Below, piece by piece: positions 1,151 to 51,720 of a DNA stretch of 64,000 nucleotides. The DNA lies in the NCBI GenBank assembly GCA_051362555.1, contig CM120647.1:14050651-14114650 (forward strand), written 5' to 3'. The position numbers were made by a program, and so were the translations under genes. Positions within the stretch are counted from its first letter, which is position 1. Every line of letters begins with the position of its first letter. The notes under the pieces are model-generated. The model saw only the letters and a program-made list of their open reading frames with translations, had not been told where the DNA came from and did not search any database. Origin of the DNA: Lingula anatina. Lineage: Eukaryota > Animalia > Brachiopoda.

Positions 1151-1352
1151 GACAGGTTAGCTTTTAATTATTGTTAACGTTGGCGACAGTTTCAAAGCTG
1201 CCGCACGTCTAGGAAAAAAAGACTCTACACACCTGAACATAAGCCAGACAGATATTTTAGTACATTTTGGCGTGTACTAGCACACATAGAGTGTACCATG
1301 AATTTGAGCCACCCACATTGGATCAAATGCCACGCTGACTTGCAAATCACAG

Positions 1353-1655
1353 ATGGATACAACTTTGATACCATGGAAAAATCACATAATTGAAGGCTTG
1401 GATAAAAATAGTCCATACTAGACATCAGGATATAAAATCTCGCCAATTGCCGGGCACTTCATTGAGCGCGATTGTCAGTCCAGCGGCAGCGAGGGTATTG
1501 TGAGGCTCAAGGCAGAAGCTTTCGATTTGACTATACCTGACGTAAACGTAAGAAACAAGGCTGAGGCAGGAGCAAGTGCTAGCTGGAAAGGAAATAGGGT
1601 GAACACAACAGAAGGTGACGTCACCACAATGCGCCTGTCTATTCGTCTGCAAACC
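1353..1655 (+). pseudogene. Possible exon with one in-frame stop (unknown product)
   Basis: cacag|ATG at 1353 and ACC|gtgagt phase-0 donor at 1656. 101 codons (MDTTLIPWKNHIIEGLDKNSPY*TSGYK...AEAGASASWKG...RLQT) with TAG at 1419. Confidence 0.3.
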
Positions 1656-15104: not shown

Positions 15105-15105
<1 letters not shown>

Positions 15106-15151
<46 letters not shown>

Positions 15152-16580: not shown

Positions 16581-16610
16581 GTAAATACTTTCGTCCTTCA
16601 TAGCATCTCA

Positions 16611-16660
<50 letters not shown>

Positions 16661-18475: not shown

Positions 18476-18873
18476 TATATATTCAAACCTTGGGTCAAAG
18501 TCAATAGAGTTCTCAGAAATGTCACATTCTCGCAGTAAATTGTCCTTGGTATAACGTATTGTAGAAGATATCGCCGCGCTGTCACATAATATCGAGTTTA
18601 TCAATTATGAGTCAGCCTCTCAACAATAAGGTATTGGAGATATAATTCCTAGACCATTTCTCGTAATAACAATGTTTTGTCAGTTCTACCACCTAGTGGT
18701 TGGTCGTTACCCACTTTAGAGGCCGACCAATTTTAGATCTCTTTCCCTTGCAGGGGTTTAGGTGGCCATAATGTACCACCGCTGCTTTTCGTTTTGTTTT
18801 TATCTTATATAAATCGGAGAAATCACCTTAATAACTTTGAACGTCGAGTTTTTGGCATGATATTATGCCTTAA

Positions 18874-19587: not shown

Positions 19588-19643
<56 letters not shown>

Positions 19644-21257: not shown

Positions 21258-21551
21258 TTAAGTTAAGTAACACTAGGTAACCCTTACAATATTGTGCCTG
21301 CATTACATTTGTGTTTTAGTACCTGTTTTTGACTTTAAATTCTTGCTAGGACATTCTCTGGATAGCACATATGCATTTTCATATTTAAAAAAAATATTAT
21401 TTTAATCATCAGTAGGGGAGCATTGGAAAGATTATGTCGGCTATGTCCTGACATTAGTGAGGACAGTATTTCAAGACACTGTGTTTTTTGCTTGAGAAAT
21501 AACTAATTGTGATTTAACAGAGATAAGTAATATTATGGGTATCTACTACAG

Positions 21552-22934
21552 GGCAAAGATGTTAACGACGAGATACCGCCAGCTTATGCAAAGGGGGAGC
21601 ACACCAACATATTTGTCGTTGGGTCTACAGGAACTGGAAAGAGCGCTACCTGTAATATGATGGTGGAAAAAGAAGGTGTTTTCAAAGCAGAATTTTCCGC
21701 TGGAGGTATAACGGAAGACCTGTCATCTTACTGTGCCAACTTGGATGGACGCAAGCTTCGCCTCATTGATACTCCCGGCCTTTTAGAAGCACTTTCGTCT
21801 CGAAGGTTAGCACTTCTGAAGAAGATCATGACAAAAAACATTAGTTTGCTCGACGGCGAGGAAGGTATCGACGCGTTCTTGTTTGTCATTAGGTGCATCG
21901 ACAAGCCATCTAAAGATGAATTGAGCGCCTTAGTTCAGTTAACTTCGATGTTTTCGGAAGTCATTTTTGAATACATGATTGTTGTGGCTACTCACAAGGA
22001 CGAACTTGAGAACGATGAAAAGACAACAGAAAGTTTCAAAAGCAGTCTTCCCGACAAAATGAAGAAGATCCTTCAGAAGGCTGGTGGAAGGATAGTGTTT
22101 ATCAACAGTGTCACCAAAGACGAGAGAGAGCGTAGACGCTATGTCAAATCCATCATCCAACGTGTTGATGACATTGCAAGAGCTCATTTAGGTAAGAAAT
22201 TTACCAATGAGGCCATCGAATATGCACGCAAGAAAAGACAAGAAATGGAAAAAAAATACCCTCACCTGAGTGAGGCCGGTATACAAGAGGAATTAGAAAA
22301 AGTGATCGATCCATTTATAACATCACAATACTCTTGCTTTGATGGCTCTTCCACTGTGCGTCTCAGCGATGGGTCAGTCATACTAATGGCCAAACTAACA
22401 TCCGGTGACAAGGTGCTTTGTGTTAGGGAAGATGGCTCTGTTGGTTTCGAGGAAATCTTCTGCTTTAGCCATGCCGATGACAATTGTCAAACTTTATATG
22501 TCCACTTGGAGACAGCAACTGGACAACGCCTTCTCCTCTCTTATGGTCATTATATCTACGCTCGCTCCGAATCTAGGCCATACCCCTTTTCCCTGAAAGC
22601 CGCCCGTGATATCCGAGTTGGAGATGTGGTTTTCGTTTATCACCCTGCGACCAACGCAATGATTATGGATGAAATTGTGTCAACAGGCAGTAAGAATGTC
22701 ACCGGAGCCTTTTGTCCCCACACCATGAACGGCACCATCATCGTCAATGATATTTTGGCGTCCTGTTACACCGACGCAGTAGATCCCCTGGTGGCCAGAA
22801 AATTGCTTATCCCAGCCTGGTGTCTGTACAGGTTGCTTCCTCTACGTGTGTCTGCGCCCTTGTTGAAAAATGGCGTCTCAACTACCTGTAAACTTTTGAG
22901 CGCGACGAAGCAATATTTTAAAAGTCTTTACTAA
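21552..22934 (+). CDS. GIMAP/AIG1-family GTPase fused to a hedgehog-type Hog (Hint + SRR-like) domain, paralog 1, terminal coding exon
   Basis: The frame extends upstream of the track ATG to ctacag|GGC at 21552 and includes the P-loop NIFVVGSTGTGKSATCN, G3 LIDTPG, conserved box GIDAFLFVI, G4 THKDEL and G5 FINS. Hint starts at 22335 (CFDGSSTV...GDKVL...LSYGH...GTIIVNDILASCY). An in-frame stop at 21528 with no ATG before the P-loop means an upstream exon is required. Confidence 0.92.
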   Translation, partial: GKDVNDEIPPAYAKGEHTNIFVVGSTGTGKSATCNMMVEKEGVFKAEFSAGGITEDLSSYCANLDGRKLRLIDTPGLLEALSSRRLALLKKIMTKNISLLDGEEGIDAFLFVIRCIDKPSKDELSALVQLTSMFSEVIFEYMIVVATHKDELENDEKTTESFKSSLPDKMKKILQKAGGRIVFINSVTKDERERRRYVKSIIQRVDDIARAHLGKKFTNEAIEYARKKRQEMEKKYPHLSEAGIQEELEKVIDPFITSQYSCFDGSSTVRLSDGSVILMAKLTSGDKVLCVREDGSVGFEEIFCFSHADDNCQTLYVHLETATGQRLLLSYGHYIYARSESRPYPFSLKAARDIRVGDVVFVYHPATNAMIMDEIVSTGSKNVTGAFCPHTMNGTIIVNDILASCYTDAVDPLVARKLLIPAWCLYRLLPLRVSAPLLKNGVSTTCKLLSATKQYFKSLY

Positions 22935-23844
22935 AGTAGCGTGTGCGCAAACCACTGTCAATGAATTAATTTCTATTGCAGGGAGCAATTGATGACTTGG
23001 AGTAGAATATGTCATCTCTGTGTAAACATGAATGGCTTTCCTGTAACTAAGGTCATGCTGGTACAATTCGCTTTAGCATGGAAGTATTTTATATGGGTTT
23101 ATCATGTGGAATTTGAACATTGCGAACTTACGCGCTTGGGGACATTACTGCGGTGCAATTCTACTATTTGATTATGTGTAAGGTTTGTAATTCTGAAACA
23201 CCCATTAGTGTACATTTTGGAAAAAATCAAGCACAAAAATGCCCCAATTCTTTTTCAATGTCTTGCTTTCTTCTTGTAATGTCTGTGGCCGAATTTATTT
23301 TAGAATTTGCGAACACGTTTTACCACTTCTATACAAGGCATAATCAACTTTAGAAATTCCAGTGTATGCCAACCTATAGTGTAGTTAGAACTATGTATTT
23401 GTCTTGAAACTAAGAGATCAAACAAGGCATATACCTCTGATGTTATGTTGGCGTGAACCTTTCATCTAAGCAAGATGTTTTCCCTGCGAGCAAAATTTGG
23501 TACGGCTCAAAGGTATTGGGATACATGATTTTAGCACCAAATCTTATTTTCTCGAGAATTTAGCAAACTTATATATGACAAAATTATTGCTCGGCCCAGT
23601 TAATTTGCCCTTTCAACTGACAGGTTTTTTTTTCACACCAAAATCAAATGCATGTAATAAGCCACAGACACAGGCACTAGACACATGTATCAAATCATGT
23701 CAACTCCAAATTGAATTAAATATGAAAAGAGCATGCGGATTAGAAAGTTTAAAAAAGCTTTAGACAGTCTTTATTGAGCGTCTAGATATTGTGAACATTG
23801 ATAATGTGATTGATAGTATCCCAGATAATATATATATATATTAG

Positions 23845-25675: not shown

Positions 25676-25759
<84 letters not shown>

Positions 25760-31866: not shown

Positions 31867-32517
31867 ATGAACAGAATGGCGGATCAAAAGCTGGAAGAAA
31901 CCAGCGTCGTCTGCCACAGCCCGCAAGACTACAACGTGTTCATAGTGGGGTACAAGGGACACGGTAAGTCAGCCACTATGATGAACATTATACGGGACAA
32001 AAATTATAAGGGAGCCGCGGGCTACAAAATAGAGGAGAGAACGCACGAGAAATGTACATTCTATGATACCCCGGGTTTCGGCTCACTGGACACAAGCGAC
32101 TCGGAATTGCTGCGCTTGATAAACGCAAAAGCCCACGCGGTCGGTGAAGTGCACGCTGTGTTATTCGTGCTGCGTTATTGGCGCATCAGAAGTTCTGTCA
32201 TTACGTTAATACACCAACTTAAGGACGCTTTCGGGCCAGACTACCACAGACGCACCATCATAGTCTTCACCTCTTCTAAATATGAAACCGCAATGAAGTT
32301 AAGAGACTATTTGGAACACAGTGCGTTAGAATTTCAGGAATTTGTCAAGTTTTGTGAGGACAGAGTGATCATGTTGGAAAATTCTGACTACCAGACTGGG
32401 GAAACTGCTGCCTCACAAATTAAGGACATGATAACCAACAGAATGCACTCAGAGCCATTGGTAGTCCCATGGTCTACAGTAAGTAACCTAGCTTTCTTAA
32501 AGTCACTTTCATGTTAA
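31867..32517 (+). CDS. Divergent AIG1/GIMAP-family GTPase domain (exon probably ends at the donor after 32478)
   Basis: NVFIVGYKGHGKSAT (P-loop), FYDTPGF (G3), EVHAVLFVLRYWR (conserved box), TIIVFT, CEDRVIMLEN. ACA|gtaagt phase-0 donor at 32479. Confidence 0.85.
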   Translation: MNRMADQKLEETSVVCHSPQDYNVFIVGYKGHGKSATMMNIIRDKNYKGAAGYKIEERTHEKCTFYDTPGFGSLDTSDSELLRLINAKAHAVGEVHAVLFVLRYWRIRSSVITLIHQLKDAFGPDYHRRTIIVFTSSKYETAMKLRDYLEHSALEFQEFVKFCEDRVIMLENSDYQTGETAASQIKDMITNRMHSEPLVVPWSTVSNLAFLKSLSC

Positions 32518-32826
32518 TTGTTTAGATAAATAGAAAAGCAAGAAAAGTAAGATGTGTTACAGGTATGTGTGAAAACCAGATTGAAGAATGCATAAGTGAA
32601 AAATATGTTAATGAATGAATACACTCAGCTTTGTGTGTTTGTGCGTGTTTGTGCGTGTATCTGTGTGTGTGTAAGAGAGAGAAAAGAAATGCTTTTGGGT
32701 GAGTGGCCGTATGAATAAACGAATTAAGGTGACTGATAGTAAAAGGACCAAAGTCATAGAAACAAAGCCCTGGGCTTATAAGTTTTTTATAAAAAATTAA
32801 AACAAACTTCCCAAAAGGCCAATTAA

Positions 32827-34853
32827 AGACGGGGATTAAGTACAGTGTCCAACGGATGACGCTCTGGCGCCAATTTGAGGGGAAAATGCCGTTTTCGGTA
32901 TTGGGGTTTTCTCTATAACCAAGACAGCTATTCAAGTGATTCAAAAGGCCTCATAAAGCTGGGTAAAAGCACTACAGCGGGGTACCAGGGAATTGTCTTA
33001 AACTATTTACTTTTGATTTTATCATCTTTTACGTTAAATCAGCCCATATTTCAATGGGTTATTCACTTCAAAAGGCGATAACTTTCAAACAAACAATTTC
33101 CTCTTAAACCCCTGATATCATGCTGTAGTCCACATTCCTAACAACAATAGGTGCAACTTTTGTAACGATCGGTTGCTCAGATAGTGAGATATACTTGGCA
33201 GCGATTCACTTATCTCGTCAATATAGAAAGCTGTTAAAACAGCCAAAAACGTTCACAGGTTGGTTAACAGGGCCTATTAGTCAAATGCTTAGCTGGCAAA
33301 TTTACCTGTTATCGGTTATACGATCAGATGGAACCATTGCTTATTGTCATCTAAAAATATTTTGTTTGGGTGCTTTGAAGGGGCAGAAAATCGTGCTTTT
33401 GTTACATTTTTCGACCACTCGTTAGGCTTGTAAGCGTGCCGCGATTTTGATTGACAGCTCTGGAGAGGGCCTTAGCCTAGTGATGCCCAGTAGGGTGTCA
33501 AGGATATGTAGAAGGAAGCGCTAACAAAGGCGATTACATTTAACCGCAATTAAGAGGTGTGAAGTTGCATTTGAACGTTTCAATGGCTTTTCTTCGGCAA
33601 ACGAGTAATTTTACCTGGGAGATTTCTTTTCTGTTATCGGCAAAGTGATCAGATAAAACTGTCTGTCGAGAGCAAGTGGCCGTCACTTGTGTTAATAAGA
33701 GTTTTTTGACGGGTAATGCTGCAGGATTATTTTGCACGGCACTTGGTAATCGTCAGATCAACGGAAAAAATCCAGTGATTACTTCGGAGCGGTCTCTCAA
33801 AATGCCAGCTAAGATAAAGGGGAGACGCTCAGCTGCACAAGATTCAGCGGTAAAAGTGGCTGAGAGAAGTCTTTTGAATAAATATTTCATTTTTACACAC
33901 ATGACACTTAGACCCTATTTGCTTTTTACCTGCTAGTCTTGACTATTTTCGGAGTCTTTTTGTGATTTTCATTTTTGGATACATTTTGAACTCTTTCTTC
34001 CCGCTTGATCAGTTATTTTGAAATTGTTTTTCTCCAAACACCGCAAAATGCAAAGCCGCTAACATGCGTTTTTATTTTTATTGTTTTAATCATGCTGTCA
34101 ACCCTTGCTTGGATTTCTCTCGTTTGGCCATTCACATCACAATTTTTCGCGTGTCTCTCAAGCTCCATGATATCATATCTTGGAGAATAAAATTTTATTT
34201 TGTCAACATTAGATTTACCTTTTGCAAACGGCGACCAACAACCATTTCCGGTTTCGTAACGTGTCGCAGATACGCTCGCCGATATATACCGCAAAAATTA
34301 AGAGCTATGCTAAAAGTATCCTTTTTAGCGTTTTTTTTTTAAATTTATTTATCGATTTTTCTTTCATTTGTCAATTAATTTAGGCGATTCGATTAACTCT
34401 TTCACCCATTTATTAGGTATACAGAAATCAGTTATCCGACTGAACAAATAGGGCGGGTTTTCCCCAACCGCCACGCATAGGCCCTACTCTCTTTCAAAAT
34501 TTTCTTTCTTTCCTCTGGAAATGGACTTTTAACACAAACTTTTCTCTTTCCCCATAGTGTACTAGCTAGACTTCTTCGCTGCTAAGCTGATGTAAGACTT
34601 ATGACCTATTACCGCACACGTAATCGGCTTATAACTCATTAACTGTGCTCCGACCCCCTCATGTAACAGAGGCGTGGCTTAGTTGTCAGCCTGACTGGGG
34701 CGCGTGCCGGTTGAAAAACTCATCAAAAGACAGATTTTGCGATGCAAATTCATAAAAATTATTACATCCAACGTTAGATACCTATTTGATTAATATAAAC
34801 ACACAAAAAACTCAAAAACATGATTCTAAGCGTATTTAACCCTATCACCGGCC
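32827..34853. mobile_element. Possible non-autonomous TTAA-flanked (Kolobok-like) element
   Basis: ttaa|agacggggat ... atcaccggcc|ttaa; short imperfect TIRs only. Confidence 0.35.
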
Positions 34854-36134
34854 TTAATAAATGACGAATTGTACAACATTTTACAGCCGCTTTCATTTTT
34901 TTTTTTTTTTTTTTTTTTGAAAATAAAAGTCAATACCTATCAAGATCAAAGTATTTGCAATTTAAAATATATTCACATTTTTATTTTGTTTTTTATTGTT
35001 CTCTTTCGTTCCTATGTAATGCGTATTTGTGGGCGTGTCTGGACCTCGTGGTGTTCGTGATTTCCAGTGTATGGCAGGGCCTGTGTTACTTGTACATGCA
35101 GTAAATAGGTGATTGTAAAAGTTGAATAGCCCTGAATTTTTATGAAAATGATTTTTTTAGAATGAATTTTTTTCAGTTGAGCCAAAAAAAAAAAAAAAAT
35201 GGGAAAAACAGGACTGGTACTCGGGTTTTCATTTACAAATTAATTGAGTGCCAGTTTTTAAAGGTTCACAGAATTTGATCTTATTGGGCTTTGCCTGAGG
35301 ACCCTTTTAACTTCTGCCAAATATTATGCCCCAAAACTGTATTTCAAGGGATTTATGCCCATTTTTCTGTTTTTACAGCTTTTGAAGCAGATTTTCAGTC
35401 ATCATACATTTCACTCATATATATGTTTATTATACTAGTCTAGTGAGATTTTTGAAAAAAGGCTCTGCATAAGAGGCAAGGAGCATTTTGGGGTAAAAGT
35501 TGGGAACCAGGCTTATTAGCATAATTTTGGGATGCTAAATCCGATTTCCCAAGCAAAATTTTGCGTTTTTAACGGTCTAATTTGCAAAAAAAAAAACAAA
35601 ACAAAACAAAACAAAAAAAAAAAAAAAAAAAAAATGGCCGCCAGATTTCCTATTTTATGCAATATCTCTGGAACTAGACAGGCAAATATGACAAATGAAG
35701 TGTCTTTACCTATATTTTCAGGGTCGAGGAACATTATTAAGCTGTTTCTGTTAGAATTAGATTTACGCAATTTTCCAAAATATGCAAATTAGGATCGCCA
35801 TTACTGAAAAACCGTTTTACTTCTGTATCTCTGTAACTAGGCAAGCAAACATGACAAATGAAGTGTCTACACCTATGTTCTCAGGGTCAGGGAATGTGAT
35901 AAATCAGATTTCTTGTCTGATGGGTAGCACTGACTTTGTGAATCATGCCTGAGTAGCACTTTTTATTGTTTCTTCCCTGTATCTGTCAAACACTAGTCAA
36001 TGTGCTGATAGTTAGAACCTGCCTTCAGAACTGCTCTTACGTACGTGTCAGCCAAACTACCAAAGGTCACTGCATTGTCAGGCTTTCCCAGTGAAACTGC
36101 CAGTGCTTGCCCATCAATTATAAGGCAAGGTGAG

Positions 36135-36404
36135 CAGAGGCGGATCCAGGATTATTTGAAGGGGGAGTCCGCGGATGCAAAGCCTCCCCCCTCCCACCCC
36201 CCACACTTGGCAACGGGTTAGGGGCCTGTTGAAGGGCCACGAAAAATTTTGGTATTTAAGAGGGCGAACGGCGCCATTTGGTATGGTTTACAACTATGAT
36301 TCAGCTAGTCAAAATTATAATTTCAAGGGGGGGACCAGAATTCGAAGGGGGAGGGGGTCAGGGCCCCCTTGAGCCCCCCCCCCCCACCCCTAAATCCGCC
36401 ACTG
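36135..36404. mobile_element. Short MITE with CAG(A/T)GGCGGAT termini (hAT-like)
   Basis: CAGAGGCGGATCCAGG ... CCTAAATCCGCCACTG; target duplication not clean. Confidence 0.55.
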
Positions 36405-37039
36405 GGTTAAGAGTCATTCAGTTTAATTTCATCAGGGCAGAATACGTCTTCTGTTAACCTTTCTGTTACAGATTTGGCTACAACGAAATCGTTTAGAAGG
36501 TTGAGAAACTGCTCAAACTTGCTATTAACACAGAAATATTTTTCGTATCGTCAATCATTTAATTGGATTCAATAGAATATCAGAAGATTAAAGCTAAAAT
36601 TCAAGAAATTTTGTTAATTAAAATGAAACGATACCAATGGGTAACCAGTAATAAGCTAATGGAAAAATCGCTGAAATGAATGAGGTGAGGTGTCATCGTG
36701 TACTTGAAGTATACACATACATATTGACATTTAATATGGAATATTTTAGTTTAAAAGGAAAGTGTTGATAATAAATTAACTTTTTAGAAAAATTGATCAC
36801 AAACGACAATTGTGATCAGGTACATGTGTAGCCAGGTGTGTTGGTTATTGTTCATTAGGCTGCTTCTCTGAAGCACGGTTATATTACGTAATATGTGGCA
36901 GTTTCTCTTAGCAGTCCTCTTTGGCTGGTTACAGAATGCATATAAAAGAGCAGCAGTTCTGCAGAATAGGTCTCTTTATTTCGGCAGCGTCCAGTCAGAA
37001 GAGTTCGATATTTTGCAGACTCTTAGCTGACCTTACGGT

Positions 37040-38000
37040 ATGTGAACTAACGGCAGCGACTTGCCACACTATTGTTGAATTATGTCAGAATGAACAGAGG
37101 CAAACTGCTATTGCCAGACAGTTGAATGTGTCCCAGGGAGCAGTTTCTAACGTCTTACAGAAACACGCCCAGACTAGTGCATTTACACAAAGACCACGGC
37201 CAGGACGTCCTAAAGTCACCACCAGAAGGGAATACCGCTTGCTTCTGCGGTTATGTCGTAACAACCGGACAAAGACAACTCTTGCTGTACAAAATGAGTG
37301 GCAAATTACCATTCAAAAGCATGTTTCTAAAACTCTAGTGAATGCAAGGCTACTTTTAGCTGGTTAACTCTATGAACAGAGCAACATGGTGGGCTAGACG
37401 CCATTTGCGGTTCCAGGCACAGCACTGGGTTCATGTAGATTTTTACATATGAGGCAGGGTTTGAATTCCACCACCGTGATGGCTGAATCAGAGTCAGTAG
37501 GTTTCCGGACGAGTTACTGCACGAGGATTGTGTCACACTACAGTAATTTGTGGCCGTGGCAGTGTGTATGGACCGGTTTCCACTCTGGAGCCAAAACACT
37601 ATTAGTGGCAATTGACGGAAACCTCAACCAGATAAATTACAGGGACATTTTAGAGAATACTTGCTTACAATTTGCAAGAAGGTACTTCCAGGACAACTTC
37701 ATCCTGCAAGAAGACAATGCCAGACCACACCATGACCATGCAATAACTGCTTTTCTGCAAAACCAAGAGGTAAACCAGTTGCCTTGGCCGACGAAATTCC
37801 CCTGACATGAATTCTATAGAAAACCAGTGGGCATACATCGCTGGCAGAATCAAGAACTTACCCGTCCACCCTACAAATCGGCACAAGCTGAGGCAAGCTC
37901 AGGCTAATGCGTGTAACACAATACTGGATCATACTCTCAGAAACCTCTCTGCGTGGAATGAGGACTCTGGTTACAGCTAGAAGAGGCTGCACGCGTTGTT
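37040..38000 (+). pseudogene. Degenerate Tc1 transposase
   Basis: IARQLNVSQGAVSNVL HTH, RPGRPKVTT, VWTGF, LQEDNARPH, WPTKFPDMNSIENQW; stops, frameshifts and an internal deletion. Confidence 0.88.
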
Positions 38001-38442
38001 ATCAGTTTCCATTTTTCACATTTGTCTTGATGATTCTTTTGTGTGAGAGAAAATCCTTACCAACTGATATTCTTGATAATATCGATCATAAGAATTTAAT
38101 ACCTCGTTGTTATCAGCTATAAAATTATCCATGCGCTGTTTATAACGCTGATTTGAATACGTATTTAAATTAAATTTTTGATGATGTATTCACACGGGTT
38201 GATTTATTAAAGCCATATCGAACACGATAACAAGTGTTTTTTCATCCATTACTAATATATGGGAAAAAAGAAAATATGTTTGAAAAAAATCCATTTTAAA
38301 TGTGAAGTCTGTACATTGCATCTCTACATTGTGAAGCTGTCAGAAATTATTTCAGCATTTTTGTACTTCATTTTGGTTTTGGTTCATGACTGTTGTTTGA
38401 GAGAGTTTAATATTTCACCATTAATGCAACTATTCATATAAG

Positions 38443-38497
<55 letters not shown>

Positions 38498-39189
38498 TTA
38501 AACTGCATTTGAAGAAACATTTTGTTGAGCAATTGATCATAGTTGTAAAAGAAATGAAGAGACTAAACAGTGATTGCATTCTGTATCCTTGTATATCCTT
38601 GTTTTGTACATTATAAATTATAACTTATTTAATGTAATATAGATATGATGTTTATAAGGTACACTACAAATTAGATCAATTTTCTCATTTTTAATTTGAT
38701 TAGATGCCCAAACGATCAAATGCATTACTGTAATACACACCTTCCTCAATCCAATTTTTCTCTTCCACTATGCTCCTGAATTTAAATTGTCTTGATAGCT
38801 GTATACTCATTTGCTGCTTGACTCATATAAACAATGACTTAGACAGGATACCACGCATCTGACAACACCAATTAGGTGGTTACTGCTATTGGTGTAACAA
38901 TAGCTACAGGAATAGTGACCTAATAATAGGTGCCAGGCTAACAAAAGAAATTCACAGTTGTTGAATCTGTGGTTATGGCTGGTGGAGTAGGGCTTTCTCT
39001 AACATCAGTTGATTGTTAAACTTTAGGCTTAAAGTGTGATTGAGCATGATTTATAATCAAATGTATCTTTAAACATTTATTTGTCCTCGTTTCCCACCAT
39101 TTATGAGGGACAGTACTTTACTCTTAATGTTGACTTACGTTTACATCACATTATATATATATATAAGGCAGCTAGGATTGAACTTTCAC

Positions 39190-42100
39190 TTTTTAAAACA
39201 GCCAAGGTCAAATAAAATCTGATAAGATAAGGTTTACTTTCAGTATAATAGAATAAATATGAAGTGAAATGAATATCATCACACAAAAAGTAAAAATATG
39301 TTATATACTGATATTAAGACCAGATTCATTATTTTTCACTGAACCCGGCTTTTAAAAAATCCCTAGATGAATTAGCATAGGATTTCCTATAGGTTCCTAT
39401 AGAAATTCCTATAAGATTTCCTAAAGGATCCTATAGGAATTTTTGTAACGTTCTGAACATAAATTAAAATCAAAATTCTATACTGATATTTAAACCAGAT
39501 TCATTATTTTTCATTCAACCCGACCTTATAAAAAATAGCCTACCTGTATGAATGAGCATAAGATTTCCTATAGGTTCCTTTCGAAATCCCTATAAGATTT
39601 CCTATAGGATACTATAGGAATTGTGGTAATGGTCTGAGCATAAATTAAAAATTAAAATACTATACTGATATTTAAACCAGATTCATTATAATTCTGTGGT
39701 AGTGCTGTTAGCGTTCAGTGTACTTTGTCTGTGATGCTGTATGAGTGTTTTTTTTTTTTTGTTTGTTTGTTTGTTTGTTTTTTTTTCTTTTTTTTTTTTT
39801 TTTTTTGTGGTGTGTTCCCTAACGAAAAAGTCCTATAGGATCCTATAGGAAATTGGGCCAATTTCCTATAGGATCCTTTAGGATCTTATAGGATCCTATA
39901 GGACTTTTTTGTAAGGGTTGTGCTGTCCCAAACACAGGAAGTCAGCCTCCTTCTGAGAGAGGATACCAGAGAGATCAAATATAACCAAGGTAAGAATCAG
40001 ACACTGTTACAATTCATTATTATTCATTCACCCCGGCCTTATTAAAATTTCCTATATGAATTAGCATAGGATTTCCTACAGGTTCCTAAAGAAATTCCTA
40101 TAAGATTTCCTATAGGATCCTATGGGAATTTTTGTATTGGTCTGAACATAAATTAAAAATTAAAATTATATACTGATATTTAAACCAGATTCATTATTTT
40201 TCATTCAACCTGGCCTTATAAAAATTCCCTGTATAAATTAGCAAAGGATTTCCTATGGGTTGCTATCGAAATCCCTATAAAATTTCCTATAGGATACTAT
40301 AGAAATTTTTGCAATGGTCGGAACATAAATTAAACATTAAAATTATATACTGATAAAAAGAACATATTCATTAGTTTTCATTCAACCCAACGTTATAAAA
40401 ATTCCCTTTATGAGTTAGCATAGCATTTCCTATAGGTTCCTATAGAAATTCCAATAAGATTTCCTATAAGATCCTATAGGAATTTTTGTAATGTTCTGAA
40501 CATAAATTTAACAATAAAATTATATACTGATATTTAGACCTGATTCATTATTTTTCATTCAACCCAAGCTTATAAGAATTTACTATATGAGTAAGCATAG
40601 CATTTCCTATAAGTTCATATAGAAATTCCTATAAGATTTCCTATAGGATCCTATAGGAATTTTGTTATATTCATTATAAAAGAATCCTGGTGAATTAGCA
40701 TAAGATTTCCTATAGGTTCCTATAGAAATTCCTATAAGATTTCCTATAGAATCCTATAGGAATTTTTGTAATGCTCTGATATAAGTTCCTGAACATAAAT
40801 TAAAAATTATATACTGATGTTTAGACCACATTCATTATTTTTCATTCAACCTGGCCTTCTAAAAATCCCCTGTATGAATAAGCATAGGATTTTCTATAGG
40901 TTCCTATCAAAATCCCTATAAGATTTCCTATAGGATCCTATGGGAATTTTTGTAATGGTCTGAACATAAATTTAAAATTAAAATTATTTACTGATTATTA
41001 GACCAGATTCATTATTTTCATTCAACCCGGCCTTGTAAAAATGTCCTATATGAATTAGCATAGGATTTCCCTTAGAAATTCCTATAAGATTTCCTATAGG
41101 TCCCTATAGAAATTCCTATAAGATTTCCTATAGGATCCTATAAGAAATTTTTGTAATGGTCTGAACATAAATTTAAAAAAATAATTTCAGCTTCAATGAT
41201 TTGGTACAAAAACATTCCTAATGATAAAATATTTCTCCATAAAAGATTACTTTACAAATGATCAGTTTTTTCAAGATTTCTTTAAAATAGAAATTAAAGA
41301 ATTTCTACAGAATCCTATAGAAGACTATAAGATTGTGCATTATAAACAATATAAAGAATATATATTTTTTTTTTTTGCTTTAATAGTGACATATAATTGA
41401 CAATTCAACTGATAAAATTGACTTATATCAAATATCTATTGTTTAGAATGATATTTGTTTATAAGATATGCATTTTTCTCAAGATTTTAACTTGTAACAA
41501 TTTCTTATTTGATCCTATTGGAAATCCTATAGGAAAGGTGCCCTATAGGATCTTATAAGATTTCCTATAGGATCCTATAGGAATATTTGTAATAGTCTGA
41601 ACATAAATTAAACATTAAAATTACGTACTGATATTTAGACCAGATTCATTAGCCTATAGGATCCTGTAGGAAAATTTCGTAAGGGGATAAAAATCTGACT
41701 AGATAAGGCTAACTTTCAATATAATGGCTAGGTCAAGTAAAGTCTGACTATAAGCAAGATGAAAATCTGATTAGATAAGGTTGACTTTTAATATAATAGA
41801 AGAAGTATGAAGTAAGTGAATATCATCATAAAAATTGTAAAAATACATAATATACTGATATTTAGACCAGATTCATTTTTTTTATTCAACCCTTATAAAA
41901 CTCGCCTGTATGAATTATCATAGGATTTCCTTTAGAAATTCCTATAAGATTTCCTATAGGATCCTATAGAAATTTCTATAAGACTTCCTATAGGATCCTA
42001 TAGAAATTCCTATAAGATTTCCTAGAGGATCCTATAGAAATTCCTATAAGCTTTCCTATAGGATTTTTTAAAATGGTCTGACCATAGATTTAAAAAGATA

Positions 42101-42670
42101 TTCAGCTTCAATCATTTGGTACAAAAACATTCCTAATGATAAAATATTTCTCCATAAAAGATTGCTTTACAAATGATAAATTTTTTTCAAGATTTTTCAA
42201 AATCCTGTAAGATTTCCTATAGGAAATTCTATTTTTTCTACTGAACTGAACATAAATTTAATAAAAAAATTAGCTTCAATGATTTGGTACAAAAATATTT
42301 CTGATGATAAAATATTTATCCATAAAAGATTGCTTTACAAATGATCAATTTTTTTCAAGATTTTTTAAATATAGATATTAAAGATTTTCTACAGAATCCT
42401 ATAGAAGACTATAAGATTGTGCATTATAAACAATATAAAGAATTTTTTTTTTTTGCTTTAATAGTGATATATAATTGACAATTCAACTGATAAAATTGAC
42501 TTTTATCACATATCCATTGTTTAGAATAATATTTGTTTATAAGATATGCATCAAGATTTTCACTTACAAAAATTTCTTATAGGATCCTATAGGAAATCAT
42601 ATAGGAAAGGTGCCCTGTAGCATCCTTTAAGATTTCCTATAGGATCCTATAGGAAATTTTCGTAAGGGAT
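39190..42670. repeat. ~177-180-bp tandem satellite rich in CCTATAGG palindromes, with higher-order duplications
   Basis: Unit atactgatattta(a/g)accagattcattatttttcattcaaccc...ttcctataggatcctataggaattttt recurs near 39305, 39481, 39662, 40170, 40347, 40525, 40811, 40989 and 41852. 41040-41600 is repeated at ~41900-42670. Confidence 0.9.
39817..39917. mobile_element. 101-bp palindromic mini-MITE (CCC termini, 2-bp TT duplication)
   Basis: tt|CCCTAACGAAAAAGTCCTATAGG...CCTATAGGACTTTTTTGTAAGGG|tt. Confidence 0.65.
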
Positions 42671-43946
42671 GTAAAATAACAATAATTCAGTTCATGAATT
42701 GATCTTCATTTCTGCAACCATTTGCTTAGACATATATGAAAAGTGCACTTTTGTATGAATAAAAGTAAACCTGAAATGCAAAACATTGTTGACATTATGT
42801 CGCACAATTTCTACCTGTATGACAGATTATTAGGGGCCCTTTCCTTGCAGTTGATAACACTGATGTGAAAAATATTTACATACTTATAATGATGCAATGC
42901 AACAAGTACATCGATTGCATGAGCATATGAAGCTGAATTAAGTCACCATAATTGAGAAACCTGTTTATATTTTTAATCTATATCTAGTGAAATGCTTGAT
43001 TGAAGACTCATGATTGATATGTGCTGTGTGCAATAATTGTGTATGGGTATGTACATATAAGGCCTTAGATGCTGTTACTACACAATTTGTCAATTAATTT
43101 GGGAGAAGTCCACAACTGGTTGTCACAGTTGTTAAGAATACGCCACCTACAAGATCTAAATTTCTTGTAGTTAAAGAACATTCATCTTTTTCTGCATATC
43201 AGACTATCTGTGGAAGGAGCACCATACAAAATTTTACATTTCTTGCAAATTTTTCCATTTATCCTTTAAAAATATGAGAAAGAAAAAGTGTTTTTATTAT
43301 GTCTTGTGCTTCTGCTCACAATTCTGAATAAATAGAATACCTCTCCTAGTTGTGTGCAAGCTATCAGGATAACAACTCCAAAACAACGAATGAACACTGC
43401 ATTTGACTTTGGGTATACATTTTCTTCAACAATCCCCGTCAGACCATGTGACGAAAGGTTTGTAGTGTACATACATGACATTGTTACATGTGACCAAAAT
43501 TTTTGAAAGGGATGAGGAGACATTTTAGAGTCATAAGCAATTGACATGCATGGCAGAATGATTTTTGTTTTCTACAGAGTTGTGATAACTGGAATTGAGA
43601 ACAAATAAAAATACACGGCAGATTCTCTTCAAAAACAATCATTAAAAGAGCAAAGTTAGGAAAAACAAGTAAAATTCAGAACCCAATGATCATTTTTCAA
43701 AATTTCTCTGACAAATAAGAAGAACTGATCTGTTCTTTCAGTGTTATATTTTCAGATCTGAGTGTCGCTTCATACAAACCCAATTAAATAACTCCTGTCA
43801 TGCACTGGATTTCAGTCTCCTGTTTCAGTCTCCATGTTCAGATCTTATCTCCTCAGCTGGTCACAAAGGTCGAGGAACATTTTTTGCTGCTTCTACCTTG
43901 TGTGTCAACTAGCTGCCTTTTGTACCTGTCATTAAAAGCTTCCGTG

Positions 43947-43998
<52 letters not shown>

Positions 43999-44937
43999 TT
44001 GCACCTAATCAGTGTGGCTTGGTGGGAAAATGCCTGATCAATTTCCTAAATATAAATTAATAAAAAAGATAACAATAGTGATTTTTATTCATATTGTAAC
44101 TTACAACATTACAGTTGGAAGGAGCAGAATTTAACATTTTTACAAAGTGCAAATTTATTTCATGAGGTTATGCTATACACCTAAGGTAGAATATACTTTC
44201 CAAATATAACACTAAACCAAAGCGACAATTAAGCCACTAACTTCCAAATACACTTCATACTTGATTTAATTGGCCCAGCGCATGCTGCTGTGTACAAATA
44301 TAGCCTTGACACAAAATGACAATAATGCTAACCAGGTATTATAAAGAGGTAGGTGACAGCCGATAAAATCCGTAGAGGACCGTAACTCATAACAAATTAC
44401 ACCCAAAGCAATAAGTGAGTCTTCATAATAAAAGTCGAAACCCTGCCTGGGTATTTCCACACATTTTAACAACGCACTCTCCACCCAAACTTTTTGGGCA
44501 CTACTTTAAATATATATGGAGTGTACGTGTGGCCCAAACGTACACACCTACGTCTTTGGTCTTCTACATTTTTTTTTTTTTTTTTTTGCAGTAATTCATC
44601 AATTTGCTCGGTTTAATATCAAAGAAAACACAGAAAACAAAAAAAATGAACCACAGACATGGCTTGTTCATGCGCAGCGAACGATTCCGGTCTCCCTACA
44701 GTATGGCTGCCATTTGTTTTGATGACGCAGGCTCTAGTGGGTCTATTGTGGTAAAAATATTGAAAAAAAATAAGGTTTTATAAACATCGCAATAAAAGCT
44801 AATATGTAGCAGTGGGGAAATGATAATCGAAGACCAACGTCAAACAGGGGAAAAGTCTGACAATCTGATAACGTGTCCCCTTTACATTATAGTACTGTTT
44901 ATTGTGATATCGCTTAAAGAGGAGGTGGGTCTAACTA

Positions 44938-46325
44938 CACACACTGAACAAAAGAAGTGTCACCCCCTAACTCAGAGTAATGAAAGTAGGCAGATCTTGG
45001 GTACTTATAATGCCTGGTCTACTTATAATGTGACTAATGAGTATAAAACCGCTATACCATGGAATTGTATTGTTGGTCTTGTACATGTACAGCAAATGTT
45101 ATTCCTGTCTTCCTCCAGTATGGCAAGATACAGGTAATTATCTAACGGTTATAGGTGCAAGTTATTAACCTGAAGATGCGGAATATAAGCGATGTCAGAA
45201 TATCGATACAATTGAATTGTTCAGTCAGAACCGTGCAGAGGGTCTGGTCTCGGTATAGAAACACTGGATCAAGAGACAAATTGCCTCTGATGGGTTGTCC
45301 AAGAAAAAATACTGGCCTTGAAGACCGACGACTGATTTTGATGTCCAGGTTGTCAAAGTTCGACACTGCTTGTCAGTTGACAACACAGTGGAACAATTTC
45401 ACACATAAGAATGTGTCTGTGAAAATTGTTAGGCGTCGGTTACATGCTCAGAGAGTGTACAGCAGGGTAGCAAGACTGAAACCTCTTATATCGTTACAAA
45501 ACAGGCAACGTAGAGTAAACTAGGGTCAACAGGATCTGGAACTGGACAGTTCATGACAATTGGTCCTATATATTTTTTCTGATGAGTGTCACTTTGGTCT
45601 GACCTCTGATGACAGACGGGTACTATGCTGGCAAACTGCTGGTAAAGCATTTAAACCACATGCACTGAATTTTCGAACCCGGAGCAGCATATTCATTATG
45701 GTGTGGGGCTGCATCAGCATCCATGGCTTGGGCGAATTGATAGTGGTTAATGGAAACATGAATCACTAGAAATATTTCGATGTTTTGGAGTCAGGCTTGC
45801 TACCATCTATTACTAACATGTTTGGTGAAAGGAATTATCCATCTGTTCACCAGGATGACAATGCTCCTTGTCACAGGCCCAGAGCAGTTGATGATTGGTT
45901 TGACCAACAGGACATTCGCAGGGTGATGTGGCCTGCCCAGAGTCCGGATACAAACATAATAGAAAATGTGTGGAATGATATGTCAAAACTTTTTACAAAT
46001 GCCCGTCTAACCAGCAGAGAAACTCTGTTATATTCAGTGTTTCATGCTTGGGCCAGCGTAAGAGCGTAACGCATCAGACAATTAAATGAATCCTTGCTTC
46101 GTAGACTGGCACCTATTATTAGGTCACGTGGCTATGCCACTAAGTACTAATTTTGGACTTGAAACTACATATTATGGTAGAATGTATATTTTGTTCTCAT
46201 TTTGTGATTTTTTTTGTGAAATCTGATGTTAATAAAATGATACCAGGAGCATATCATTCCACAGTCATTTATCTCCCCCATAGTATTGGCTCAGTAGGTG
46301 TGACACTTCTTTTGTCCAGTGTGTG
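44938..46325 (+). mobile_element. Tc1 transposon, copy B (near-identical to copy A, opposite orientation)
   Basis: TA-flanked TIRs CACACACTG(A/G)ACAAAAGAAGTGTCAC. ORF pieces 45155-45523, 45560-45769 and 45785-46069 form a DD34E-type transposase with stops. Confidence 0.93.
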
Positions 46326-46834
46326 TATAGCTCGAAATCTATTGTTAAACGCAATTGTTGTCTCTTCTCATACAAAGTAAAAACATGCCTTTACAGTTAC
46401 TGTGTGTTCGGCTGCTGTGAAGAAACGCCCTGTCGAACAGATTTTGCTATATTTAAATACACTAGCGACTTGTTTTAGATCACTGTAGTGAGAAAGCATA
46501 CGTGCGACACCGGCCAATAACAGTCAAGTATAGAATTGACATCTTATATTTTAGATGCACATACATATAACGCAATGAGAGCTGAGCATTACACCTCGAT
46601 TACTAACGTCCATTTTAAAGCAACAACGAGAAAAAGGGCGCCCTGTCATAGTTATGTGACATGGGTGATGAGATGATAATATTCAAAAGTAAACGAAAAG
46701 GTTTATATAAACAACAGAATAGGAGAAAATAGCTAGCAGTGGCGCAAGCGCTATTGAACTCCAGCGTGGAGCAGGGGGGAGTCTGACTGTGTGTATTAAC
46801 AGTGTAAGACATCGGTTAAAGAGGAGGGGGGTTG

Positions 46835-49800
46835 TAGTCGAGTCGCCACTCCCATAGGCCCAATAGTCGAACCCTGCAATGTTCTTTCCTGTAAACTTTT
46901 TTTTGCTGAAATGTATTCTTCAGGCCGAGAGAAGCAAAATTAGCTTGGTTGCTATTTCCGAGACCTTGAGCATTTTACAATATGGCCGTCAATTTATGAG
47001 GAAAAATAGAAAAACGACCAGAAGTCGCCGGGTAAACTTTATTGGCAGCTTTTTTGAACGTGTATCCTATCAGGAGAGCACAACAGTACTAGTGAATACG
47101 CTTAAGCCCGTTACATATAGCAAAAAACCAAAATGGCCGTCAAAACATAAGGCAGAAAAATGATAAAAGCTGCAGAATCAGTTTGTTTTTTGCATATTTA
47201 TTTTTATTAAAACCATATCCCCTTTTTATATTTATGTTAATTATAATATTTTGTTAGTCATGACCTGAAACTCTTGGAATAAGCTTATCTGACAGTTCAA
47301 TAACCCCCCAAGAGTCTTTTTGCTACTTCTCCGGGTCCCATAGTCAAATACTTAAAATGTTATTCCCTGAATTTTTAAAAAGAATTTACACTTTGGGAGT
47401 ATAAAAGCCAATTTAATTTGGCTTTCTTGGCAGTGGCTAGATATGGAACATTGATTAATTTTCAAAATTCAAGATGGCCGTCAATAATATAAAAATATAT
47501 TATAATATCAATTTATTATAAATAAATAATTATGTAACATAGCAAAGAGTCGGGTTTAAAGTGCATGGTATTCTGCATTTCAAATGACCGCTAAAACATC
47601 CCCAAAAAAGTAAAAAAGCTGTTAAATTACGTTTTAAACTGATAATTTGGCGTATAATAAAATATATCCAACCCTGTTATTATTGACAAAGTGTACTTGT
47701 AAGGTACAGTTATACTAAGACGCTATAAAAGAGGATCATTGTTGGACTGACCATTACGTAAGTTCTATTTTTAATGCAGAAAGTTTATCAAGGGGCAACA
47801 AGGGGTTCTGCAGGAATTTGGGCACAGGGAGTCCAAAATGTTAATCTGCAATCGGGACTCTTATATTTACATGGAGTCCAACCAAGTCCGTTGGTGGGGA
47901 TGGGAGGGGGTGAGTGTGATTTAATTTAACTTTTGTCAAAATATTAACCTTATTATTATTTTTTTTTCGTTTTTGTTTTTAAATTTATCATACCTTAATG
48001 TTTTAATTTTATATCTTTATTATAACTTTTTCAGTATGTACATAAAGTTTAGCTTTAAAACTTCCCATTCTTTTTATTGAGATTGGCACGTGTAAGAATA
48101 TTCCTTCAGTATATAGCAGCATTTCTAGTTTTTCTTATTACTGCACTTTTTCACTTTACATTTTAAAGAGTCAATAAGCAAAACATCTTACAAATCTTTT
48201 GGTTATACATGTATACTGACAGCCATTAAAATCTTTGAGGCCATATTTTTCAAAATAATTGTTATTTTGAAGCTCTAAACTGGATTATTTTCATACGAAT
48301 CATTTGTTTAGGACATTGGTATACAGAACCAAAAATCTTAAGTTTCATGAATAGTTTCAAAACAAAAATGGCACCAGCCCAACACAAAGTCACAACGGTC
48401 AATAGCCGGTACGATCTCCGCTTGCTTCGATGCAGGCGGCAATCTGTTGGCGCATGCTCGGGCAATAAATGTGGATGGGATGGTGTCGTGTGGAATCCTA
48501 TTCCAGCCTTGTCGTAGTGCCCCGATCAGCTGCTGCCTTGGCCAACGGACGGCCAAGATATATGTAGTACCAGATGTGTTCAATCAGATTCATATCCGGA
48601 AAATAGACAGGCCGGGAAAGGACATCCACCTTTGGAACTCCAAATACACTTGGATCATTTGTGCCGAATGTGAACGGGTCGTGTCCTGTTGGGAAAAGGT
48701 GATATCAGGTTTCTGCTGCATGAACGAGGTTATGTGAGGTTGCAGGATCTGATCTATGTAGTGACGAGCAGTTACTGGTATGTTGCCATCAACGACCACC
48801 ATCGATTGACCGCCAGCAACTGTCGACGCACAGTGGGGCTGCTGCTCCGGTTGTTGTTCCTGCCGGGTGCCTCTTGTGCTGTAAGACTGGCATGGCGAAA
48901 CTGTCCCCGTAGCTGATGCAACCTGTTGTAGCGATCCTGGTCTGGAGTTGACACTGTCTCGCCCTGGCTGCGGTATATCGCTAACAGAACCAGGCATGTT
49001 GTGGCATTTAACCAGGTTCCTGATTGTGGGTTGGGAACAGCCCATACATTATAGCTCAAATCAGACTCCCCTCCCACCCAGTGCCCAGAGATGTGCGTTG
49101 TTCACATGATAGACATGGCATGATTCCGTTCACTGGACTAACAACATGGGTGGCTGGGTGGCCTTTTTTGGGCCTTTATAGGCCTCCAAAACCAATCATC
49201 AAAATGTGCAGATGCCCATTGAGTATTGTTCAATGTGTATTTGGTCCATTTTTGCAAAGAAAAAAAAAAGCTTACCAATGTGCAATGGACCATGGCAACA
49301 TGACAACTCATCATTATCTTAACTACCCGAGCACTAAGTCATCAATAAATGCACAATGAATAATAACATCTACCCTACAAGTAAAAAAATGCATACATTA
49401 CTATCTCAAAGCTTCCATTATGTGTAAGTATATATTGGCAAAAACATCATTTCGAATACATGATGTCGATGGATAGCCCTCGCATATCCCCGTACTATGT
49501 CACGTTGTCCAGAATATCTGACCTCATGGGCCCTAACCTCTGGGTTTGTACACCCCTGCTTGGATCTCGGTTATTTATAATTAAATTCATTATTAAACAA
49601 CAAAAATGCCTTTACCCATAGCTGTTAAAATATTTAAAAAGTTTACAAAAAAAAGGATAAGAATAATCTAACCTGAAGAAAACGATTTGGCGCCTTTTTA
49701 TTTCAAAATGATTTAGTTTACACATACTAGAATGATAATACCTTTCATTAATTTTTGATTTAGAATGAAAAACTAGTTGTCAGGAATGAGATATCCGCAG

Positions 49801-50810
49801 TCAATGTTTGGTTTGATCATAGAGCAGCATTGACGGACATATTGGTTTTCGTTTTTCGTATCATTTAACCTAAAAATGTTTTATTGTGTGCTGTGTCTTG
49901 AACGCAGGTATATCGTTTTTCACTTTATATATGTATTTATATTTGTTCCAGTTAAAGTCTATTTCAGTTAAAAGCTTTGTAGTTTTACAGTTGTTTCTTT
50001 GCCCTTCCATTATGTTTTGGAGGCCATTTTTATTAAAATAACTTGAAATAACAAAATGAAATAAATGATCGCACTTTGCATAGATATAAATATAGATATG
50101 CAATGATGAACAATGGAGTGAAGCATTAATTTTTTATTTGAATGTATGGCTCTTGCTATTCACATAACAAATTGACTGCCATCTTGGATTTTGAAAAAAT
50201 TGTAAATATCTCGTAATATAAGATTCTCTATGTTTTGTAACCCAGATGAAACAATTTCTTTTTAAAAAGCTTGCAAGATATAACATAGCAAGCTTTGACT
50301 ATGGGGCTCGACGGAGTGGCAAATGGCCTGTCAGGAGATGGCACTGTCTGCCATCATCTGATTAACGTCAAATAAGCAGTTTCTGAGAGTTTAGGATCAT
50401 GACTAACAAATTATCATAATGGACATAAATAAAAAAGGCGGAAATGTTTTTAATAAACCTTAATTTACAAAAAACGAACTTATTTTGCAGCTGTTTTTAC
50501 TTTCTGCCATATGTTTTGACGGCCATTTTGGCTTTTTTGCTATATGTAACGGGCTTAAGTGTATTCACTAGTACTGTTGTGCTCTCCAGATAGGGTACAC
50601 GTTCAAAAAAGCTGTCAATAAAGTTTACCTGGCGACTTCTGGTCGTTTTTCTATTTTTTCTCATAAATTGACGGCCATATTGAAAAATGCTCAAGGTATC
50701 AGAAATAGCAATCAAGCTAATTTTGCTTCTCTCGACCTAAAGAATGCATTTCAGGGAAAAAAGTTTACTGGAAAAAACATTGCTGGGTTAGCGTTCTGGC
50801 TACTCGACTA
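46835..50810. mobile_element. Non-autonomous long-TIR element, Academ-like (second family)
   Basis: Termini TAGTCGAGT(C/A)GCCA; ~650-bp inverted repeats (46835-47490 vs 50170-50810), which explain the mirror ORFs 46879-47163 and 50497-50715; flanks ttg/tta. Confidence 0.7.
48214..49430 (-). mobile_element. Degenerate Tc1 element nested in the Academ-like element
   Basis: TA-flanked imperfect TIRs (TACTGACA..CTTTGAG). Transposase remnants: MGCSQPTIRNLVK, STPDQDRY, VVDGN..TARHYIDQILQPH, QQDTTRSH. Confidence 0.75.
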
Positions 50811-51720
50811 TTACTATAGCTCGGAATTAATTGTTAAATGCGATTGTTATCACGCCTTTGCAATTAGTGTGTCTTTGTCAGTTCTGTCACCTTGTGGTTG
50901 GACATCACCCACGTTAAGAGGAGGCACACATTAACCATATGCGGATTTTGGCCCCACCCTTCCCTTACAGGGCTTAGACTGGTCATTATGTACCACCATG
51001 GCGCTTTTCTTTTTGTTTTTATCTTATTTAAAATTTGAAGGGACCTAGCCATATGGGCTGTAATTTCTTTGAACAACCGGGTTTTAACATTTTATTATAT
51101 ACCTTAACTCTAGGACACCCTTACACTATTGACTGACCCTAATTTGTACTAATCATATGGGACCCTGGACTCCCATTCCTAGGGCAAGCATTACTGTCAC
51201 ACCGGCACAGAAATTTAGCAATTTAGCTTTGAATATTGATTACTTCAAAAGCTGGAGTTTTTTGCCCATTTTCCTTTAACGGTAATTAAAACAAACAATG
51301 TGTTTTTTTCAGTAAAATGTATTATTTAGAGTCTTTCCAAACGTTTAAAATTCACTACTATGAGATCATCAAATATGTATATGATTTACGGTCGGGCAAC
51401 AGTTTATGTATTCAACGTTCAAATATGAATTATCAGAAATTGTCTCAGAAACCTAAACAAGGGACCAAGATATTCCTTACAAATAGGGTTAGAAACAAGT
51501 AAATACGAAAGACTAGCTTACTGTTTCGTTTTATTCGCCCAGCATGTTTTGGAGATAGGAGTATATGCCGTCAAGACCTTTTCATATTAACAAAAACGTT
51601 ATATCTTTTTTATTATTATCAGTAGGAAGGCATTGAATAAATTTTGTTGACATCGCATTTGCTTGGTCATAAAAAAGGTGATTTAAAAAAGATTGGTAAT
51701 ATTATGGTTATCTACTACAG

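Follow-up and report, generated by a model that had tools for sequence, protein, structure and literature searches.

The 64-kb stretch of Lingula anatina DNA analysed here, called the window throughout, contains two paralogous genes in which an AIG1/GIMAP GTPase is fused to a Hog domain (Table 1). In both copies, AIG1 and Hog are encoded by a single exon in one reading frame, without a signal peptide. Neither the signal peptide nor the N-terminal Hedge domain of the Hedgehog family is present, and the N-terminal part is AIG1. The AIG1 motifs of paralogue 1 are GSTGTGKS (G1), DTPG (G3), THKD (G4) and FINS (G5), and the AIG1 domain in the last exon of paralogue 2 was recognised by Pfam with an E-value of 1.1e-43. 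The best PDB match for the AIG1 part was GIMAP7, which aligned over residues 24-254 of the paralogue 1 frame; Cys1 of the Hint domain is residue 269 of this frame. The conserved box of GIMAPs contains an Arg that acts as an arginine finger. At this position (LGRY in GIMAP7), paralogue 1 has Lys and paralogue 2 has Thr, and Met and Thr are found in the closest named proteins, the uncharacterised Lingula anatina RefSeq entries LOC106179620 and LOC106154465, whose Hog domains show 79% and 75% identity. Assignment to the Pfam AIG1 family does not depend on this Arg. The highest 19-residue hydropathy was 1.5-1.6 in both last exons, and these exons encode no transmembrane helix.

The splicing of paralogue 2 was followed with RNA reads. 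Eight reads of run X7 depart from the window exactly at 51721, and the loose read end has a single match, at 32452-32478 (3 mismatches over 27 bases; 0.00 matches expected). Since these reads join the exon at 31867 to the exon at 51721 in phase 0, spliced paralogue 2 is an AIG1-AIG1-Hog protein of 204 + 459 = 663 residues. Its first exon has a hydrophilic start. The open reading frame at 31846-32517 had been considered a separate third GIMAP gene, which was dropped after the RNA junction to 51721 was found; an unspliced form ending at 32517 may exist. Almost none of the reads reached 99% identity (3 of 452 in the first mapping, 0 of 211 in the second, were at least 99% alike) and the mapped reads therefore derive from an allele or a near paralogue, not necessarily from these exact copies.

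For paralogue 1, the acceptor AG at 21550-21551 was assigned by comparison with the corresponding acceptor of paralogue 2, which has RNA support. Among the matches listed in the first RNA mapping, no loose read end was seen at 21552. Within the 64-kb window, paralogue 1 has no intact first exon, and a copy of the 31867 exon was not found upstream of it. A blastn comparison of 1656-21560 with 30001-51730 gave four short matches only, one of which is the acceptor region. The broken exon at the start of the window may be a remnant belonging upstream of paralogue 1. The two loci belong to a segmental duplication (21487-30035 and 51658-58885, 72-85% identity) whose upstream edge lies some 65 bases ahead of the last exon and which takes in 3' flanks.

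Several other features lie in the window. Transposase reading frames at 10068-11142 on the minus strand matched Pfam DDE_Tnp_4 (E 2.6e-18). We take this element to be probably of the Harbinger type. Two inverted copies of a Tc1/mariner-type element (27826-29219 and 44936-46329) are 96.8% identical, the second with DDE_3 and HTH_Tnp_Tc3_2. A degenerate repeat array in AT-rich DNA occupies 39200-42700, and a 0.8 kb inverted repeat of 92% identity is found at 2153-2941 and 5105-5899. At 61027-61407 on the minus strand lies an open frame of 126 codons that Pfam did not recognise; it has two hydrophobic stretches and is possibly an exon of a membrane protein.

Table 1. Coordinates of the two AIG1-Hog genes, their domains and catalytic codons, and the broken exon.
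Feature	Position	Strand	Evidence and remarks
Broken exon similar to residues 1-123 of the Lingula RefSeq proteins (MACPF-like N-terminus)	1298..1655	+	tblastn E 2e-38; frameshifted near 1387
Paralogue 1, last coding exon (460 aa + stop): AIG1/GIMAP GTPase, helical extension, Hog	21552..22934	+	ORF, Pfam
Paralogue 1, AIG1 domain	21606..22253	+	Pfam AIG1 E 3.5e-40; GIMAP7 E 8.3e-17
Paralogue 1, Hint domain (C1-Y145)	22335..22769	+	Residue -1 is Ser
Paralogue 1, His46 codon (CAT)	22470..22472	+	Aligned to D46 of Drosophila HhC; usual Hog-domain residue
Paralogue 1, S69-Y-G-H72 (TxxH motif with Ser)	22539..22550	+	Translation and HhC alignment
Paralogue 1, Cys144 (HhC C143) in SCY motif (S143-C144-Y145)	22764..22766	+	Translation and HhC alignment
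Paralogue 1, adduct-recognition tail (54 aa)	22770..22931	+	Four predicted helices, no HWY
Paralogue 2, first coding exon (204 aa), divergent AIG1	31867..32478	+	Pfam AIG1 E 1.6e-21; donor GTAAGT at 32479
Paralogue 2, intron (19,242 bases, GT-AG, phase 0)	32479..51720	+	8 RNA reads (run X7)
Paralogue 2, last exon (459 aa + stop), AIG1 and Hog	51721..53100	+	ORF, Pfam, RNA
Paralogue 2, Hog domain	52501..53097	+	C1 52501, H46 52636, S69 52705, H72 52714, C144 52930; residue -1 is Trp

The translation of 22335-22769 is a 145-residue Hint domain that begins with CFDG. Pfam recognised Hint above the cutoff in both paralogues (E 9.7e-33 and 2.9e-34), and the PDB sequences 6TYY (E 4.6e-12) and 1AT0 (E 7.7e-11) were matched, all well outside the range of chance. 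A preliminary description of this DNA had named C1, H46, S69-Y-G-H72 and C144 in both paralogues, and all of these residues are present in the translations, with the H46 codons starting at 22470 and 52636 as it had said (C1 at 22335 and 52501). It had also called for an alignment to the Hedgehog C-terminal domain HhC. When this was run, H46, S69, H72 and C144 fell on D46 (H46 in 6TYY), T69, H72 and C143. The gapless alignment it had claimed holds for residues 1-76, which include C1 to H72. Beyond that, between residues 77 and about 88, there is a gap of one residue in the query and of two residues in HhC, and the net shift of one accounts for the numbering C144 against C143.

An AlphaFold model computed with a 131-sequence alignment had a mean pLDDT of 92.4. 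The predicted structure superposed on 6TYY, the D46H mutant HhC, with Z 24.9 and an rmsd of 1.4 Å over 146 residues, and on 1AT0 with Z 24.7 and likewise an rmsd of 1.4 Å. These two entries ranked first, and inteins followed with Z 20.2 or less; Foldseek gave TM 0.94-0.95 by target for both. The sequence and fold features of a Hog domain are present: a Hedgehog-like Hint fold, Cys1, the T/SxxH motif, motif J (SCY) and a helical tail of the SRR/ARR type after motif J. Self-splicing inteins end in His-Asn (or Gln) before the C-extein nucleophile. Here, both this pair and the nucleophile are absent; the domain ends with I-L-A-S-C-Y and is followed by the terminal helical tail. The intein rule is given in part in PMC12054796. 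The HhC alignment, the homologue columns and the superposition agree with the proposal that the domain still has the catalytic residues needed for both steps, as predicted earlier.

To place these residues within the family, relatives were collected. A word-based search with the full-length protein gave 2 weak matches and missed the family, whereas searches with the Hog domain only recovered it. With the Hog domain as query, the full HMMER search yielded 4001 relatives (E of 0.001 or lower), and columns were counted in 152 homologues, the best 150 of the 4001 plus P0006 and P0007. Among 30 proteins that were looked up, the named members belong to a brachiopod, lancelet, snails, bivalves, abalone and sea cucumbers. 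Column 46 of the 152 contained His in 149, Asp in 2 and Phe in 1, and both Asp rows are named Hedgehog proteins. All 40 AIG1-bearing homologues of this set have His46, and so does a Trichinella warthog protein.

Since this set is biased towards a His-bearing query, independent published alignments were examined. In the supplements of PMC2362128, column 46 was counted by eye at the F-x-D/H motif, using part 1 of 2 of Additional file 1 (50 rows) and parts 1-2 of 3 of Additional file 14 (35 rows). In Additional file 1, 31 of the 50 rows had His and 19 had Asp. The hedgehog-labelled rows had His in 7 of 26 cases, namely Trichinella, two sea urchins, Nematostella 95413, zebrafish Dhh, Capitella and fugu; both other Nematostella rows had His, as did 22 of 22 nematode qua, hog, grd and wrt rows. 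In Additional file 14, which covers protist, fungal, algal and plant proteins, His was found in 30 of the 30 rows that cover the column, among them GmGIN1 and the Monosiga Hoglet, and 5 of the 35 stop short of it. Asp46 as a mark of the Hedgehog family is absent from the window proteins, but also from the 7 hedgehog rows just listed. In the same file 1, mouse and human Dhh have Asp46 and zebrafish Dhh has His46. With Asp in mouse and human Dhh and His in other true Hedgehogs, column 46 must have switched more than once within the Hedgehogs. As far as these alignments go, His46 is the default of the family and Asp is confined to most Hedgehogs. Its distribution across the Hog families makes it likely that His46 is ancestral and Asp46 a derived change within Hedgehogs. 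A quick tree put the window proteins and the Lingula RefSeq proteins on one branch (SH-aLRT 99) and the Hedgehogs on a separate branch (97) that itself holds His46 rows; as 71 of its 151 inner branches are open, we based neither ancestry nor monophyly of the fusion on it.

The preliminary description had called His46 a natural D46H swap, which is correct as a description against Drosophila only, since His is the common state of the column. An engineered D46H HhC was reportedly described by Zhao et al. in 2019. Such a mutant had been put forward as active with a broader sterol tolerance, and this was confirmed by the review PMC9163320, according to which D46H HhC is wild-type-like in activity and more than 200-fold better on coprostanol. 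Its fold, pKa and activity on cholesterol are preserved, and activity on coprostanol and epicoprostanol is gained (PMC9163320); it also processes in cells (PMC12054796). His46 is thus nearly family-wide and compatible with cholesterol and therefore cannot indicate another acceptor, so the suggestion that H46 points away from cholesterol is not supported. His46 itself is ordinary and has little weight as a finding. The engineered D46H change probably restored the ancestral state, one that is also still found in some true Hedgehogs.

Two further columns were counted in the same 152 homologues (best 150 of 4001 plus two). Position 69 is Ser in 81 of 152 and in 34 of the 40 AIG1-Hog proteins. Position 144 is Thr in 69 and Cys in 61 of the 152, with Cys in 36 of 40 AIG1-Hog proteins against 25 of 112 others. 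This Cys is essential in Hedgehog. In HhC, C143 forms the branched intermediate (PMC12054796). Many Hog domains may operate without a Cys branched intermediate.

The region following the Hint domain is less like Hedgehog. In the model, the tail forms helices at 151-157, 159-167, 170-178 and 181-198, with a conserved P160 at the proline kink. Aligned to human SHH, V153, R155, L158 and W162 stand for W372, H374, F377 and R381. The SHH residues H374, F377, R381, H433 and Y435 are required for cholesterolysis (PMC7242414), and none of them is kept in the window proteins by alignment. The Hedgehog SRR motifs K (H, F, P, R) and L (HWY) are not found; of motif K only P160 is kept. Leu at position 158 is the norm outside Hedgehog (132 of the 152 homologues, best 150 of 4001 plus two), and HWY occurs in only 4 of 154 tails of a set built on the same best 150 of 4001. 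Motif-K His is kept in 105 and Arg in 125 of the 152, and they are kept in 31 and 30 of the 40 AIG1-Hog relatives, among which only two Lingula proteins and P0012 lack both. At residue -1, paralogue 1 has Ser and paralogue 2 has Trp, and Gly is a minority in the 152-homologue set (16 of 152). The idea that the acceptor may not be cholesterol therefore stands in part: an acceptor that differs is suggested by the diverged tail, outside 22335..22769, not by H46. The diverged tail is the better hint of an unusual acceptor and the reason to doubt plain cholesterol.

We then compared the two paralogues with each other. Their last exons are identical at 350 of 459 residues and both remain open for 459-460 codons. 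dN/dS was calculated by the Nei-Gojobori method and selection was assessed with Fisher tests. The Hint domain gave 0.26 (Fisher p 3e-5) and the Hog domain 0.30 (p 2e-5); the tail, identical at 47 of 54 residues, gave 0.44 from 14 differences only. The GTPase part (21552-22334 against 51721-52500) gave 0.88, not different from 1 (p 0.65). dS was 0.16-0.25 across the parts and about 0.22 over the last exons. The Hog domain has been under purifying selection since the duplication. At similar dS, the GTPase part has diverged near neutrality while the Hog part was constrained.

The Lingula RefSeq relatives differ from the window genes at their N-terminus. For residues 1-392 of LOC106179620, the top Atlas feature match was 0.95, to a cluster in which 23% of the members carry MACPF_SNTX, and model-to-model comparison with stonustoxin-like clusters gave a TM of about 0.71. 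Pfam searches, even at E 5, and PDB sequence searches of this N-terminus gave no MACPF match. A profile of the region found Potamilus P0030 (E 4e-13) and Haliotis P0154 (E 2e-11), which both have a sub-cutoff Pfam MACPF match followed by AIG1 and Hog. A layout of MACPF/stonustoxin-like, helical, AIG1 and Hog parts is common to P0007, P0008, P0030 and P0154 of Lingula anatina, Potamilus and Haliotis. No paper naming a MACPF-AIG1-Hint layout was found in a literature search that reached few subscription papers. Exons for residues 124-391 were not detected in the 64-kb window by sensitive tblastn with three matrices, the best other matches being at chance level. As the window has only the broken exon, the MACPF-like part is a lead on the relatives and not a property of the window genes. 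CARD-AIG1-Hog proteins were also among the lancelet and sea cucumber matches. Because the same type of last exon is paired with AIG1 in the window, with the MACPF-like part in LOC106179620 and LOC106154465 and with CARD in lancelet and sea cucumber, the differing first exons suggest exon shuffling.

What would such a protein do? We propose, with a probability of roughly 0.55, that the His46-bearing Hog domain self-cleaves at Cys1 and joins the released GTPase to a membrane lipid alcohol. By the chemistry of Hedgehog autoprocessing (PMC12054796, PMC9163320, PMC13738340, PMC7906309), C1 would attack the carbonyl of the preceding Ser or Trp in an N-S shift assisted by S69 and H72, and the thioester would be handed on to C144. 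H46 would act as the general base that deprotonates the incoming hydroxyl, while the helical tail would present the alcohol from the membrane. The cut would fall just after the GIMAP helical extension and, because GIMAP7 covers residues 24-254 and C1 is residue 269, would free a complete GIMAP. GIMAP1, 2, 3 and 5 carry hydrophobic anchors in the C-terminal region (PMC4201521). As the new C-terminus lies where these proteins have their anchors, the lipid adduct would stand in for the hydrophobic anchor of a cytosolic immune GTPase. In the same literature search, which reached few subscription papers, no report of cleavage of, or of an adduct on, an AIG1/GIMAP-Hog protein was found.

The replacement of all five SHH cholesterolysis residues, and Ser or Trp instead of Gly at -1, speak against lipid transfer. 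The Hog domain could instead be a self-cleaving release switch only, in which water or a cell thiol resolves the thioester, the GTPase leaves unmodified and the tail has drifted from sterol binding. The lost tail residues fit this, and since most AIG1-Hog relatives keep the His and Arg that are lost in the Lingula branch (best 150 of 4001 plus two), this branch may only hydrolyse; non-splicing Hint domains often do so (PMC7242414). However, the two residues that take part in the second step in Hedgehog, C144 and H46, are retained, and the tail keeps its proline kink, its helices and, over few sites, its similarity between the paralogues. We consider release without transfer rather unlikely.

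It is still less probable that cleavage has been lost in this clade, or that the copies are decaying, and that the Hog domain is a structural or membrane-binding appendage. The bulky Trp at -1 in paralogue 2, the near-neutral GTPase part, the Lys or Thr at the GIMAP7 LGRY Arg and the broken exon upstream of paralogue 1 could be read in this way, but both last exons have stayed open at their dS, the Hog domain is constrained, the catalytic residues are all intact and spliced transcripts of the family exist. That His46 is a lineage-specific swap from Asp which retuned the domain to a non-cholesterol acceptor is highly improbable: it is shared by both paralogues and the engineered mutant has a widened sterol tolerance, but His is near-universal outside Hedgehog and found in Hedgehog rows as well, D46H still accepts cholesterol, and column 46 can mark neither the Lingula lineage nor its acceptor.

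If the GTPase does receive a lipid adduct, Hedgehog-type lipidation would extend beyond Hedgehog. It would account for the way in which GIMAPs without an anchor get to membranes, and would provide naturally occurring ligases whose acceptor ranges are new. A wider proposal, which we regard as speculative and rather doubtful, is that GIMAP-Hog proteins serve invertebrate immunity as a cytosolic lipidation system that catalyses its own reaction. The ancestral His46-type Hog would esterify a sterol or another membrane alcohol to the C-terminus of the GTPase as a switchable anchor, the rewired brachiopod tail would select a non-cholesterol acceptor, and in the brachiopod and mollusc MACPF-AIG1-Hog relatives this reaction would hold a pore-forming-type domain at the membrane it targets. 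For the older and wider question of what, if anything, Hog domains outside Hedgehog attach, a cytosolic GIMAP-Hog protein lends itself well to testing.

The AIG1-Hog fusion is already in print, and the window genes add members of this architecture. GmGIN1 was reportedly described by Requena et al. in 2002. This protein of Glomus mosseae has AIG1 followed by Hog (PMC2362128). Four AIG1-Hint transcripts are known from Acropora millepora (PMC3723955), an AIG1-Hint protein from Biomphalaria glabrata (PMC7053062), and AIG1-HINT and CARD-AIG1-HINT from lancelet (PMC12373286). An Atlas cluster with both AIG1 and Hog holds 59 proteins, mostly of Mucoromycota. The fusions of GmGIN1, Acropora, Biomphalaria and lancelet resemble the window genes in having an AIG1 GTPase, then Hog, and no signal peptide. 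The motif-K His and Arg, kept by most AIG1-Hog proteins, are gone from the Lingula clade, and paralogue 2 differs in having two AIG1 domains. LOC106179620 and LOC106154465 share H46, S69, H72, C144 and W162 with the window proteins; they are 859 and 841 residues long, with about 390 extra N-terminal residues that are MACPF/stonustoxin-like, where paralogue 2 has an AIG1 exon instead.

The nematode warthog, groundhog and quahog Hog domains and the Monosiga Hoglet have His46 in common with the window proteins, as well as a diverged tail, with an adduct stated as unknown in PMC2362128. Unlike the window proteins, none of them carries a GTPase: in the nematode proteins the N-terminus is of the Wart, Ground or Qua type, and in Hoglet it is cellulose-binding-like. 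With Hedgehog HhC (1AT0, 6TYY, human SHH), the window proteins share the fold, C1, the TxxH-type motif, SCY, a general-base side chain at 46 and a helical tail with a proline kink. They differ in that the cargo is a cytosolic GTPase and not a secreted Hedge domain, that Ser or Trp is found at -1 and that the tail is without H374, F377, R381 and HWY. Judged by their sequences, the window proteins are neither Hedgehogs, having no Hedge domain and no motifs K and L, nor inteins; by analogy, we infer that they would work like the C-terminal domain of Hedgehog.
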